Made by a program: the position numbers and the translations under genes
Origin: Escherichia coli
Lineage (GTDB): Bacteria > Pseudomonadota > Gammaproteobacteria > Enterobacterales > Enterobacteriaceae
DNA: 64,000 nt
Direction: 5' to 3' (one strand)
Assembly: GCF_029227855.1 (NCBI RefSeq)
Contig: NZ_CP074356.1
Shown: one piece after another, positions 47,052-49,699 of the stretch
Position numbering within the stretch: the first letter of the stretch is position 1
Layout: every line of letters starts with the position of its first letter
Notes under the pieces: generated by a model
The model's input: the letters and a program-made list of their open reading frames with translations, nothing else
Told to the model about the DNA's origin: nothing
The model's database searches: none

Positions 47052-48044
47052 ATGGTGAAATCGACGTCATGTATAACCATTGATTTCATGAATATGTCGC
47101 AGCTAACTGAACGGACCTTTACGCCATCTGAATCTCTCAGCAGCCTGTCACTTTTTCTTAGTCTGGCACGTGGACAGTGTCGGCCGGGTAAATTCTGGCA
47201 TCGCCGTAGTTTTCGCCAGAAATTTTTGCTGCGCTCGTTGATTATGCCGCGTTTAAGCGTTGAGTGGATGAACGAACTTTCCCACTGGCCCAATCTCAAT
47301 GTGTTGTTAACGCGCCAGCCGCGACTGCCTGTGCGTCTGCATCGCCCTTACCTTGCGGCGAATCTTAGCCGTAAGCAATTGCTGGAGGCGTTACGTTACC
47401 ATTATGCGTTACTCCGCGGGTGTATGTCGGCGGAAGAATTCAGCTTATATTTGAATACCCCTGGGCTGCAACTGGCGAAGCTGGAAGGCAAAAACGGCGA
47501 GCAGTTCACACTTGAGCTGACCATGATGATCTCAATGGATAAAGAAGGTGACAGCACAATCCTGTTCCGCAACAGCGAAGGTATTCCTCTGGCAGAGATC
47601 ACGTTTACCCTGTGTGAATATCAGGGGAAAAGAACAATGTTTATTGGCGGACTGCAAGGCGCAAAATGGGAAATTCCACATCAGGAAATCCAGAATGCGA
47701 CGAAAGCCTGCCACGGGCTATTTCCCAAACGCCTTGTGATGGAAGCGGCCTGTCTGTTTGCCCAACGTTTGCAGGTAGAGCAGATCATTGCCGTCAGCAA
47801 TGAAACACATATTTACCGCAGCCTGCGTTATCGCGATAAAGAAGGCAAGATCCATGCCGATTACAACGCTTTCTGGGAATCGGTTGGCGGCGTATGTGAT
47901 GCTGAACGCCATTACCGCCTTCCGGCACAGATAGCACGAAAAGAGATTGCCGAAATCGCCAGTAAAAAACGGGCTGAATACCGTCGGCGCTATGAGATGC
48001 TCGACGCTATTCAGCCACAAATGGCCACGATGTTTCGCGGTTAA
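47052..48044 (+). CDS. ybjX: VirK/YbjX-family protein (DUF535)
   Basis: 330-aa ORF in the position of ybjX, convergent with ybjD and overlapping its stop by 4 bp. The true start may be the downstream Met at 47091 (MNMSQLTERTF). Confidence 0.85.
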   Translation: MVKSTSCITIDFMNMSQLTERTFTPSESLSSLSLFLSLARGQCRPGKFWHRRSFRQKFLLRSLIMPRLSVEWMNELSHWPNLNVLLTRQPRLPVRLHRPYLAANLSRKQLLEALRYHYALLRGCMSAEEFSLYLNTPGLQLAKLEGKNGEQFTLELTMMISMDKEGDSTILFRNSEGIPLAEITFTLCEYQGKRTMFIGGLQGAKWEIPHQEIQNATKACHGLFPKRLVMEAACLFAQRLQVEQIIAVSNETHIYRSLRYRDKEGKIHADYNAFWESVGGVCDAERHYRLPAQIARKEIAEIASKKRAEYRRRYEMLDAIQPQMATMFRG

Positions 48045-49699
48045 TCCGCGCGACCGCGCGCCAGCCACAGCACGCGTGAGAACATTTTTTTCAGCAGCGT
48101 CGGTACGGAATCCACACCACGACGTCCTGCCTCCATTGCCACTTCAATGGCGAGATCGGGTTTGGAAGAGCGATGGATCGCTTTCGAGATAATTTTGCGC
48201 AGATTCATCGGTACATTTTCCGGGATTTGCGCCACGCGGTGGAACACATCGGAAAATCCCTGGCGATACATAAAATGTTCCATATCCAGCGCCGGTAACG
48301 CCGTTAAATGTTCTCGTTCGGCTTCCCGATCGTTATTCAACAGGCTGCGTACCGTAGCGGCATATTTCTTCCCTGCTTCATCGCCATCGACCAGTACATG
48401 CCATTCAATCCCCATTCGGCGGGCAAATTTAACCAGTGGCTTTAGCCCGGACTGGGCAAACTCAATGACCTTGATCCCTTCAGCATCAAAATGATGTCCG
48501 CACTGACGCGCCAGTTCATTGATAACCCAGGTTTCCGTTTCCCCTTCCACCAGCAGCCAGCAGCGTGCAAACAGCGATGACGGACGATTAAAACGAATGT
48601 GGAAAGAGATGCGTCGGCTATCTTCGGTACTCAAGCCACTCGGCCCCAGACGCCAGGCGGCAACGCGCGAGGACTCACGTACCAGTCGGCAAATATGCTC
48701 TACCGGCGTTAACGAAAGCAACTCACCCGAGTTGGTGGTGGCAATGCGCTGCAATGGCAGAAGATTCAACAGATGCCAGGCAACTGAAAGCATAATGGGG
48801 TGTAAACGGGTTTCTGGATCTTCGATCAGCAACAATGGACGGGCGTCTTTATCCAGTCGCAATGTGCCTTTTGCCTGCAATAAAGTAGCAAACAGGCCGA
48901 GCAAAATAACCCGATACGAGCGCCCTCCTGGTCGGTCAATCATCCGGTTGATGATATCCAGATAGCGCCAGCTTCGTTGCTCATTGCTGGCTCGCCGCCG
49001 CATTAAACGATATCGCGCCTGTCCGGCCCCCTGCTCAGAGAAATAATGCTCAAGCAGCTGTACCATTGCGGAAAGTCCCTGACGAATCTGCCCATCAGAG
49101 AGATTTTGCGGATGTGAGGATAGCTCACGGGCGAGGAAATCGAGCTGGCGCGCGGTGACTTCCACATTAGGGACATTTGGCACCGTGCCGTTACGAATAC
49201 GGCGCATAAAACGGGCATCACGCAAGCGCAGCACCGGCATTAAACGCACCAGATGGCGTGCCTGGTCGTTAATATCCTCGACATCAATCGGATGTCCGTC
49301 TTTATCGAGAAAACTGCGGAGTGTCATCACGCTGCCGTCTTCCGCACTCTCCCCTTCCAGACGATAAAAAATACGGTGATAGCCATCGGTGCATGGCGTC
49401 CAGCACGCTTCCAGCGGCCGATAGCGGCGAACCCGATGTCGGCCTGGCAGCGATTCGCGGAAGGTCAAAATAATATGCAGATGATGTTCTCGCCCGTTGA
49501 TATCTCCCGGCGGGAACCAGAAATCGTCGCGCTCAAAATGGTAGAGATCTGATTCTGGCGATAGCAGCAGAGTTAAGGCGTCCAGCAAGCTGGATTTACC
49601 CCACGCGTTCTCCCCAATCAGGACGTTGTTTTGTTCCAGCATCAACGACAAACGGTTGATACCGCGAAAACCCACAATTTCAACGCGCTCAAGAATCAT
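48041..49699 (-). CDS. ybjD: OLD-family (overcoming lysogenization defect) ATP-dependent endonuclease homolog YbjD: N-terminal ABC-type ATPase, C-terminal Toprim
   Basis: 552 aa with Walker A (GENAWGKSSLLDAL) at the N-terminus and a Toprim-like acidic C-terminal region (LLVEGETE); chromosomal position as in K-12. Confidence 0.88.
   Translation of the reverse strand: MILERVEIVGFRGINRLSLMLEQNNVLIGENAWGKSSLLDALTLLLSPESDLYHFERDDFWFPPGDINGREHHLHIILTFRESLPGRHRVRRYRPLEACWTPCTDGYHRIFYRLEGESAEDGSVMTLRSFLDKDGHPIDVEDINDQARHLVRLMPVLRLRDARFMRRIRNGTVPNVPNVEVTARQLDFLARELSSHPQNLSDGQIRQGLSAMVQLLEHYFSEQGAGQARYRLMRRRASNEQRSWRYLDIINRMIDRPGGRSYRVILLGLFATLLQAKGTLRLDKDARPLLLIEDPETRLHPIMLSVAWHLLNLLPLQRIATTNSGELLSLTPVEHICRLVRESSRVAAWRLGPSGLSTEDSRRISFHIRFNRPSSLFARCWLLVEGETETWVINELARQCGHHFDAEGIKVIEFAQSGLKPLVKFARRMGIEWHVLVDGDEAGKKYAATVRSLLNNDREAEREHLTALPALDMEHFMYRQGFSDVFHRVAQIPENVPMNLRKIISKAIHRSSKPDLAIEVAMEAGRRGVDSVPTLLKKMFSRVLWLARGRAD

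Follow-up and report, generated by a model that had tools for sequence, protein, structure and literature searches.

YbjD of Escherichia coli, a stand-alone OLD-family protein with a predicted Class 2 (GajA-type) nuclease half

The protein encoded by ybjD, a gene on the minus strand at positions 48041–49699 of the window analysed here (64,000 nt of Escherichia coli, assembly GCF_029227855.1, contig NZ_CP074356.1), is a stand-alone DUF2813 OLD protein with a nuclease of predicted Class 2 type, and probably cuts or nicks DNA in a metal-dependent, ATP-gated manner. Inherited vertically, the gene itself belongs to the core genome, and it is subject to purifying selection equal in strength to that on its housekeeping neighbours. 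It is also already known, being annotated (in a 100% identical genome, RefSeq labels it 'ybjD: ATP-dependent endonuclease') and recently studied, so that its re-identification adds little. YbjD served as the query when the OLD classes were defined in 2019, and was listed there as a stand-alone Class 1 protein (PMC6755086), in keeping with the original prediction that the locus was probably not a new system.

Genomic context and selection

The ybjD coding sequence, taken from the list of open reading frames and its translation, consists of an ATG start, 552 codons and a stop, and is a real gene, far above chance; the strand had not been given in the original prediction. It is flanked by the convergent gene ybjX (47088–48044) and the divergent gene aqpZ (50125–50820), with clpA, clpS, cspD, macAB, lysO, hcp, and hcr in the wider surroundings. 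Of 5426 complete E. coli genomes, 5393 contain the ybjX-ybjD-aqpZ segment at a coverage of at least 80%. Across 80 Enterobacteriaceae species ybjD keeps its syntenic position, with an open reading frame of 552 codons in 78 of them. The expectation of a single-gene core locus without a partner helicase is thus borne out. An IS110-family insertion, placed by the original prediction about 1.3 kb away, was located at about 51050–52436, which leaves 1.35 kb to the start codon of ybjD; the reference E. coli locus taken for comparison lacks the insertion. No link between the insertion and ybjD was found, with aqpZ separating the two.

Between the divergent genes ybjD and aqpZ, the intergenic region (49700–50124) is AT-rich (37% GC) and is presumed to hold the promoter, with no match to the sigma-70 consensus on its ybjD strand; promoter and terminator scans around ybjD returned weak consensus matches only, none of them convincing. 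The same region contains no LexA box, and SOS regulation of ybjD was rejected, the 20 LexA-type matches in the window equalling the chance expectation and none of them lying near the gene. A scan of positions 46900–52800 against Rfam gave zero RNA family matches.

The distribution of ybjD is not the patchy one of genes in defence islands or mobile elements. The gene is near-universal in a fixed housekeeping slot and has a native GC content, ybjD-type genes are absent from the phage records searched, and apparent plasmid matches are chromosomal or chromid records. Relatives in Vibrio, Proteus-like bacteria, and Succinivibrionaceae likewise lie among housekeeping genes, and the stand-alone YbjD/DUF2813 clade occurs in Gammaproteobacteria and at least one betaproteobacterium. 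The dN/dS of ybjD is about 0.05, similar to that of macAB, lysO, and aqpZ; as dS is near saturation (about 1.5–1.9), absolute dN/dS values are rough and the ranking by dN is sturdier. In that ranking the Toprim core (residues 376–470) is the lowest segment, with a dN of 0.041 (dN/dS 0.027). Such constraint bears on the suggestion that ybjD is a decaying, functionless Gabija remnant that lacks its helicase, which would account for a GajA-like build without GajB and for a knock-out without phenotype (PMC13261556). This reading is already strongly contradicted and extremely improbable, given the low dN/dS, catalytic residues that are all invariant or nearly so, the constant length of the open reading frame, a gene that is intact across the family and beyond, and the detection of ybjD mRNA in wild-type cells (PMC13261556).

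Where ybjD and ybjX converge, their stop codons overlap in the tetranucleotide TTAA (48041–48044), as read from the sequence, with the ybjD stop at 48041–48043 on the minus strand and that of ybjX at 48042–48044 on the plus strand. This 4-nt overlap is conserved in 55 of the 60 species having ybjX, despite YbjX being only about 50% identical, the pair is also found in a Serratia record, and ybjD-ybjX is listed as a convergent excludon from RNA-seq (PMC12288877), which implies mutual antisense interference. Whilst these observations would suit a functional two-gene unit of ybjD and ybjX (VirK family), such a unit is very unlikely: the genes converge and so do not share a transcript, Klebsiella, Raoultella, Superficieibacter, and other lineages have lost ybjX but kept ybjD intact, YbjX changes at three times the rate of YbjD (dN 0.346 versus 0.105), and distant YbjD orthologues have different neighbours.

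The ATPase half

As originally predicted, the 552-residue protein combines an ATPase with a C-terminal Toprim domain, with a Pfam search finding DUF2813, AAA_15/AAA_21, and OLD-like_TOPRIM. The ABC-type ATPase region, including a helical insertion, spans residues 1–375 (48575–49699, minus strand; DUF2813, E 1.5e-160), the AAA_15/AAA_21 matches falling on its P-loop. Compared with the PDB, the YbjD family profile matches Ts OLD, GajA, PtuA, Rad50, and SMC heads, and the best match of the full-length profile is 6P74 (Ts OLD).

Conservation was counted over 63 YbjD relatives of 28–53% identity. In the Walker A motif or P-loop (G29-E-N-A-W-G-K35-S-S37; 49589–49615, minus strand), G29 and E30 are invariant, whilst G34 is retained in 62 and K35 in 57 (with Arg in five). 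The Walker B motif and D-loop (L289-L-L-I-E293-D294-P-E296-T-R-L-H300-P301; 48797–48835, minus strand) align with the GajA motif LIEEPEISLH, and E293, E296, and H300 are conserved in 58, 59, and 62 of the relatives; the counterparts of these Walker B/D-loop residues in Ts OLD are E276 and H283 (PMC7049728). At the H-loop position (48731–48733, minus strand), which aligns with STHSPELL of GajA, Asn323 replaces the canonical His. The idea that this marks an inactive ATPase was rejected because a His-to-Asn change here is common among Class 1 homologues (PMC7049728) and because the column is variable in the YbjD family itself (N 38, H 10, Q 9, Y 5, A 1).

The helical insertion (residues about 177–277; 48869–49171, minus strand) is presumed to be a dimerisation domain. 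The AlphaFold2 model (pLDDT 88) has four long helices here, with lower pLDDT, and a dimerisation domain is inserted at the equivalent place in Ts OLD and GajA (PMC7049728, PMC10568477), an analogy by which YbjD may self-associate through the inserted helices. The insertion is the least conserved part of the protein, the highest dN (0.146) being that of residues 121–280.

The nuclease half and its active site

The Toprim nuclease core comprises residues 376–470 (48290–48574, minus strand; Pfam OLD-like_TOPRIM over residues 376–440, E 3.8e-16), with E385, E389, D438, and D440, and an extra Insert-3-like helix at 458–464. It is followed by a C-terminal helical domain (residues 471–552; 48044–48289, minus strand) with D472, E474, and an invariant K513. 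When mapped onto the catalytic residues of P2, Ts, and Bp OLD listed in PMC7049728, a two-metal site is complete at the level of sequence, with E385, D438, and D440 (conserved in 63, 62, and 63 of the 63 relatives) as the putative ligands of metal A, and E389 (62 of 63), D472, and E474 as those of metal B. This is the two-metal ligand set of the Class 2 structures, namely those of GajA (8SM3), the Burkholderia pseudomallei OLD CTR (6NK8), and a Xanthomonas OLD CTR (6NJV).

Since the sequence profile aligned to PDB chains over the Toprim core only, leaving the C-terminal helical region unaligned, structure prediction and fold comparison were used for the latter. The best Foldseek matches are the Class 2 structures 6NK8 and 6NJV/W/X (TM 0.65–0.74, and at least 0.70 except for 6NJV), with GajA (Bacillus cereus GajA, 8SM3) next. 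Placed by the predicted models and these fold matches, K513, which lies 39 residues past E474, is the likely catalytic lysine and would be supplied by the C-terminal helical domain. In P2 and Ts OLD, by contrast, the catalytic Lys/Arg lies 7 residues past the metal-B Glu, a position occupied by Gly in YbjD, and Ts OLD has neither an Insert-3 helix nor a C-terminal helical domain, both of which YbjD possesses. The family profile matches plasmid GajA with an E value of 9e-35 over 476 columns and P2 Old with 2e-13 over 191 columns, and the top PADLOC models for YbjD are GajA models. In our models, the nuclease half of YbjD is thus of the Class 2 (GajA/Bp OLD) build and not P2 Old-like. The original prediction had likened the architecture to both P2 Old and GajA; the order of ATPase and Toprim is indeed common to both, however the likeness in the nuclease half extends to GajA and not to P2 Old.

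These features also bear on whether YbjD could be a P2 Old-like abortive-infection tRNA nuclease, triggered by RecBCD inhibition or aberrant DNA ends. Both proteins are stand-alone (Class 1 by context), and the OLD-type Toprim domains of P2 Old and PARIS AriB can cut tRNA (PMC12445682, 10.64898/2026.07.10.737580). However, the shorter and weaker P2 Old alignment, the Class 2 rather than +7 placement of the catalytic lysine, and a C-terminal fold nearest to DNA-cutting Class 2 enzymes all argue against this, as does the survival of a recBC(ts) strain expressing YbjD where P2 Old kills, the toxicity of P2 Old being RecBC-dependent and that of YbjD RecBC-independent (PMC13261556). A tRNA nuclease of this kind is therefore unlikely.

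Comparison with known OLD systems

Membership of the OLD family is evident at both ends of the protein: the ATPase gives P-loop and DUF2813 matches with G29–K35 and E293/E296/H300 conserved, and the C-terminal Toprim carries the Glu and DxD ligands in a fold that matches OLD CTR structures. Classification against the OLD classes, as had been proposed, places YbjD in Class 1 by context, with a Class 2-type nuclease half. As with the Class 1 proteins P2 Old, Thermus scotoductus OLD (6P74), and Vibrio cholerae Vc OLD, the gene stands alone, without a UvrD-like helicase, retron or AriB partner, and Class 1 proteins and YbjD share the ATPase-Toprim order, the Walker B Glu, the D-loop His, and a frequent H-loop Asn (PMC7049728). 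The Insert-3-like helix and C-terminal helical domain are not traits of Class 1 structures (Ts OLD/P2 Old), and the predicted helical insert in the Toprim domain, together with a C-terminal helical domain supplying the lysine, points to Class 2. The settings of the genes differ too, with P2 Old residing in a prophage and Vc OLD lying beside DarTG on a mobile element termed PDE, in contrast to the fixed chromosomal slot of ybjD.

The resemblance to GajA is likewise partial. The helicase partner of Class 2 is lacking beside ybjD in the window, in the 80 species, and in distant relatives (none in the 8 contexts inspected), whereas real plasmid GajA genes, of ~25% identity to YbjD, have a helicase gene directly downstream. 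Relatives with 40–45% identity in the C-terminal half only, initially suspected to be GajA, prove to be stand-alone DUF2813 proteins. The GajA proteins compared exceed YbjD by about 25–55 residues in length, the identity of YbjD to plasmid GajA is only about 20–26%, and GajA genes reside on islands or plasmids, in contrast to the vertically inherited ybjD.

Proposed function of YbjD

A 2026 study reported weak anti-phage phenotypes upon over-expression of YbjD, in that Bas18 and Bas20 plated less well and Bas64–68 formed smaller plaques, on induction only, whilst the Keio ybjD knock-out equalled its parent against 68 BASEL phages (PMC13261556). Neither the Toprim domain nor its acidic residues were needed for these phenotypes, and the Walker A mutant K35A retained the phenotype with raised toxicity, for which those authors cite the inhibition of GajA by ATP, a property that the K35A toxicity fits (PMC13261556). 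The dispensability of the Toprim domain and the phage-neutral knock-out count against a reading of YbjD as a nuclease in cells. No YbjD biochemistry was found in the literature searched, and other mentions of ybjD are incidental (lesion-tolerance strains, cathelicidin RNA-seq, and an EnrR ChIP peak in Edwardsiella).

By analogy with GajA, YbjD may cut or nick DNA in a metal-dependent manner under the control of ATP. In this model, ATP on the ABC head would keep the enzyme restrained, and its activity would be freed once ATP is no longer bound or abnormal DNA has been recognised. Its native role could be low-level immunity against phages or foreign DNA, or chromosome maintenance. From the Toprim core being the most constrained segment, and the two-metal residues invariant or nearly so, we infer that the function maintained by selection requires the nuclease, and would thus differ from the Toprim-independent effect of over-production.

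Another possible, though less probable, explanation is that YbjD is a housekeeping genome-maintenance enzyme acting on a DNA structure of replication, repair or segregation and not an immune protein, with the anti-phage effect caused by an excess of the ATPase/DNA-binding domain. Its strict vertical inheritance, fixed synteny, housekeeping-like purifying selection, and absence from phages and true plasmids are consistent with this, as are the housekeeping surroundings of distant relatives. Cran1, a Class 5 OLD of Sulfolobales involved in cell-cycle progression, resembles YbjD in its vertical inheritance within one taxon outside defence contexts, and in its helical insertion in the Toprim region with the active site intact; its taxonomically homogeneous clade has been an argument for a non-defence role (PMC12796447). 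A Salmonella transposon screen, as relayed in PMC7049728, found 'the old gene' conditionally essential under temperature stress, the ybjD orthologue being a candidate only for that gene. Cran1 differs in being essential and archaeal, and its gene shares a conserved operon with one for a membrane protein, whereas ybjD is bacterial, lacks a co-directional partner, and is not known to have a cell-cycle phenotype. Against a housekeeping role, ybjD is non-essential, no growth or repair phenotype of an E. coli ybjD deletion was found in the searchable literature, no LexA box lies upstream, the closest relatives of known role (GajA, Old, and retron OLDs) are all immune proteins, and immune genes may also be core chromosomal genes.

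GajA normally depends on GajB for defence, and a helicase-less GajA-like enzyme may therefore act differently from GajA. A more speculative proposal, which we regard as rather doubtful, is that Gammaproteobacteria have domesticated a GajA-type nuclease without a helicase, the DUF2813 clade, and retain it in their core genome for work that depends on the Toprim active site, either in Cran1-like genome maintenance or with a host SF1 helicase (such as UvrD or Rep) used in trans. If this were true, the published Toprim-independent anti-phage effect would be a side effect of over-expression and not the real job of the protein.

Three aspects of ybjD thus sharpen a question in the OLD field, namely the task of stand-alone OLD proteins in their native hosts. 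The gene evolves like a housekeeping gene and unlike a defence gene; the most constrained part of the protein, the nuclease, is exactly what the sole published phenotype can do without; and the context-based label 'Class 1' masks what is predicted to be a Class 2 (GajA-like) nuclease build. Taken together, these suggest that the native function of YbjD lies outside the phenotype published so far.

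Genomic context and inheritance of ybjD

The ybjD gene lies where the original prediction placed it, at 48041..49699; it is encoded on the minus strand, with the ORF list and its translation giving 552 codons from an ATG start, and is labelled "ybjD: ATP-dependent endonuclease" by RefSeq in a genome with 100% identity. Pfam recovers the proposed N-terminal ABC-type ATPase and C-terminal Toprim domain, with DUF2813 spanning residues 1–375 (E = 1.5e-160), OLD-like_TOPRIM spanning residues 376–440 (E = 3.8e-16), and AAA_15, AAA_21, and SMC_N also matching the P-loop. The local gene order is clpA-clpS-cspD-macBA-ybjX-ybjD-aqpZ-[IS110]-lysO-hcp-hcr-poxB, with ybjX convergent and aqpZ divergent. 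The IS110-family element, expected at ~1.3 kb, lies 1.35 kb away from the start codon of ybjD. This ~1.39 kb element (~51050–52436), with a minus-strand transposase ORF (51325–52350) annotated "IS110 family RNA-guided transposase", sits in the aqpZ-lysO spacer (50823–52586), and its spacer flanks (50880–51049 and 52437–52538; ~270 bp) are in the opposite orientation to those of E. coli E69 (locus L003), so that the spacer is both interrupted and inverted.

ybjD is a vertically inherited core gene. The ybjX-ybjD-aqpZ segment is present in 5393/5426 complete E. coli genomes (≥80% coverage), and a search through single representative genomes of each species, with genera including Escherichia, Citrobacter, Salmonella, Klebsiella, Enterobacter, Raoultella, Kluyvera, Kosakonia, Atlantibacter, and Buttiauxella, recovered 80 Enterobacteriaceae loci at 79–99% identity, all flanked by hcp/lysO/aqpZ and ybjX/macAB, loss of ybjX or aqpZ notwithstanding. 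Of the 80 species, 78 keep an ORF of precisely 552 codons, and the GC and GC3 of ybjD resemble those of the adjoining genes. Orthologues of 45–75% identity reside on chromosomes or chromids of Yersinia, Serratia, Proteus, Aeromonas, Vibrio, Photobacterium, and Salinivibrio, with distant members (28–53% identity), including those of Motilimonas, Candidatus Avisuccinivibrio, and the betaproteobacterium Chitinilyticum, found as single genes amid housekeeping genes (pgpA-X-dxs-ispA-xseB, ushA-like/terC-X, and cysS...X-yicC, where X is the family member). The proposal of a single-gene core locus holds within E. coli and at the same slot across 80 species, and the distant members inspected (8 contexts) likewise stand alone.

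No YbjD-type gene was found among the phage records searched, with P2 old reaching 28% identity across a third of the protein. The end of one 2 kb record, OR845570.1 ("Escherichia phage ECO95 1-6-1"), matches YbjD residues 1–98 at 91% identity, and looks like transduced or contaminating host chromosomal DNA rather than phage-borne ybjD. High-identity "plasmid" matches proved to be megabase records or fragments with the chromosomal ybjX-ybjD context; truly plasmid-borne relatives show ≤35% identity, and ≤28% when query coverage is three-quarters or more.

Some metagenomic family members (P0149, P0162, P0163, P0165, P0175, P0196, and L085:392-4360) are 1000–1867 aa long, with a complete ATPase and Toprim core and several hundred inserted Ala/Ser/Gly-rich low-complexity residues, one such insertion separating the metal-B D-x-E motif from the SKP lysine motif. 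At the metagenomic locus L085, a DNA polymerase I gene is second downstream, past an uncharacterised 1020-aa ORF.

Selection and residue conservation

Pairwise Nei-Gojobori comparison, with the window sequence as reference, puts the median dN of ybjD at 0.105 and its dN/dS at ~0.05, in the range of macA (0.067), macB (0.061), lysO (0.046), aqpZ (0.041), and clpS (0.046), and far below ybjX (dN 0.346, dN/dS 0.17); the dN/dS values are rough because dS is near saturation, with the dN ranking being robust. The reading of ybjD as a dead remnant is disfavoured, with a negligible likelihood. Within YbjD, the Toprim segment (residues 376–470) is the most constrained (dN 0.041, dN/dS 0.027), and the central helical insertion the least (dN 0.146).

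In an alignment of YbjD with 62 relatives at 28–53% identity, the Walker A residues G29, E30, G34, and K35, the Walker B/D-loop residues E293, E296, and H300, and the nuclease residues E385, E387, E389, D438, D440, D472, E474, and K513 are invariant or nearly so. These correspond to residues experimentally required in P2 Old, namely K37, D299, and H306; E398, D453, and D455; E402, D541, and E543; and K550 (PMC7049728). Only the H-loop deviates, with Asn at position 323 (column N 38, H 10, Q 9, Y 5), which is unremarkable since His-to-Asn is a frequent Class 1 variant here (PMC7049728). As Toprim is the most constrained segment and its catalytic residues are conserved, we conclude that the selected function of ybjD requires an intact nuclease, whereas the sole published phenotype is nuclease-independent.

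OLD class and nuclease build

OLD classes are defined on gene neighbourhood (PMC10568477), hence YbjD, which lacks a helicase partner, belongs to Class 1. Its modelled build, however, is that of Class 2. Neither the Insert-3 helix nor the C-terminal helical domain is present in the Class 1 enzyme Ts OLD, and both Ts OLD and P2 Old place a catalytic Arg/Lys at +7 from the metal-B Glu; the two helical elements do occur in the Class 2 enzyme Bp OLD, whose helical domain supplies K562 (PMC7049728). In contrast to Ts OLD and P2 Old, the +7 position of YbjD is an invariant Gly481; its invariant lysine is K513, 39 residues past E474, which we assign from the predicted models as the Class 2-type lysine. 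AF2 models (pLDDT 88 for full-length YbjD, 94.6 for the C-terminal region alone) show one helix (458–464) between alpha3 and beta4, with four more at 473–547. Foldseek ranks the Class 2 C-terminal region structures 6NK8 and 6NJV/W/X first against the C-terminal model (TM 0.65–0.74 along the entire length of these structures; ≥0.70 for all but 6NJV), followed by GajA chains, with Ts OLD absent among the best 50 matches; GajA also ranks over Ts OLD for the full-length model. The top PADLOC models are those of GajA, and the family profile matches a real plasmid GajA, with its helicase gene directly downstream, at E = 9e-35 over 476 columns, compared with E = 2e-13 over 191 columns for P2 Old. This pattern fits a published phylogeny nesting Class 2 inside a non-monophyletic Class 1 (PMC12796447). 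Of the P2 Old/GajA-type architecture originally proposed, the ATPase-Toprim order common to both stands, and the predicted nuclease build is that of Class 2 GajA, not P2 Old.

Overlap with ybjX

Across loci L002-L081, the convergent ybjD and ybjX genes were compared at their stop codons, which share TTAA (48041–48044) in the window. This 4-nt overlap is retained in 55/60 Enterobacteriaceae species having ybjX, with YbjX identity falling to ~50%, and leaves no space for a terminator; the pair is recorded as a convergent excludon (PMC12288877). In the Kluyvera-type loci of four species (L067, L070, L072, and L073), ~1.13 kb of extra sequence between ybjD and ybjX breaks the overlap. The VirK family gene ybjX (47088–48044, compared with L008-L081) evolves ~3 times faster than all neighbours, and recurrent losses (Klebsiella, Raoultella, Superficieibacter, and others) have removed it with flanking genes remaining; aqpZ and lysO are likewise absent from some lineages. 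That ybjD and ybjX form one functional unit is disfavoured and very unlikely. ybjD (UTI89_C0880) is listed among genes induced by a cathelicidin-derived peptide, alongside arn, marR, and evgS (PMC6737244 Table); given that ybjD and ybjX overlap at their 3' ends, we speculate that the signal could stem from antisense transcription reading through from ybjX, provided the RNA-seq did not distinguish strands.

Mechanism and native role

E. coli YbjD (b0876) was the query by which OLD classes were defined by Schiltz et al. 2019, who place E. coli in Class 1 as isolated single genes (PMC6755086), in accord with our neighbourhood assignment. A 2026 micropublication (PMC13261556), proposing the name oldB, detected ybjD expression in wild-type cells and found susceptibility to 68 BASEL phages unchanged in the Keio deletion; YbjD induction reduced plating of Bas18 and Bas20 and gave smaller plaques of Bas64-68, requiring the ATPase domain, with the Toprim domain and acidic residues dispensable. 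Remaining papers naming ybjD are incidental mentions. The finding is real and was correctly interpreted, but already known, as anticipated by the suggestion that this was probably not a new system.

In YbjD the ABC ATPase motifs are all present, with the OLD-specific substitutions already known, and a helical insertion occupies the position of the dimerisation domain of Ts OLD and GajA; the two-metal Toprim site is complete and accompanied by a lysine. YbjD may self-associate and work as a GajA-type DNA endonuclease or nickase that depends on metal, with ATP binding predicted to hold the protein in restraint, as reported for GajA (PMC13261556). The greater toxicity and retained phage phenotype of the Walker A mutant K35A (PMC13261556) would be expected under such restraint. 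Identity and architecture are held with very high confidence, ATP-gated DNA cleavage is roughly an even proposition, and the combined reading is somewhat favoured. P2 Old kills a recBC(ts) strain but YbjD does not (PMC13261556), and a tRNase of the P2 Old kind is disfavoured as improbable. We read the ATPase-half over-expression phenotype as excess ATPase/helical domain binding DNA or protein, and not as the function under selection. The evidence is compatible with low-level immunity and equally with genome maintenance, a housekeeping role being possible but less likely than not.

Housekeeping-like evolution, the strongest constraint within YbjD falling on a phenotypically dispensable nuclease, a predicted Class 2 build with no helicase, and a conserved ybjD/ybjX stop-codon overlap are modest refinements, which make it easier to test what Class 1 OLD proteins do natively.
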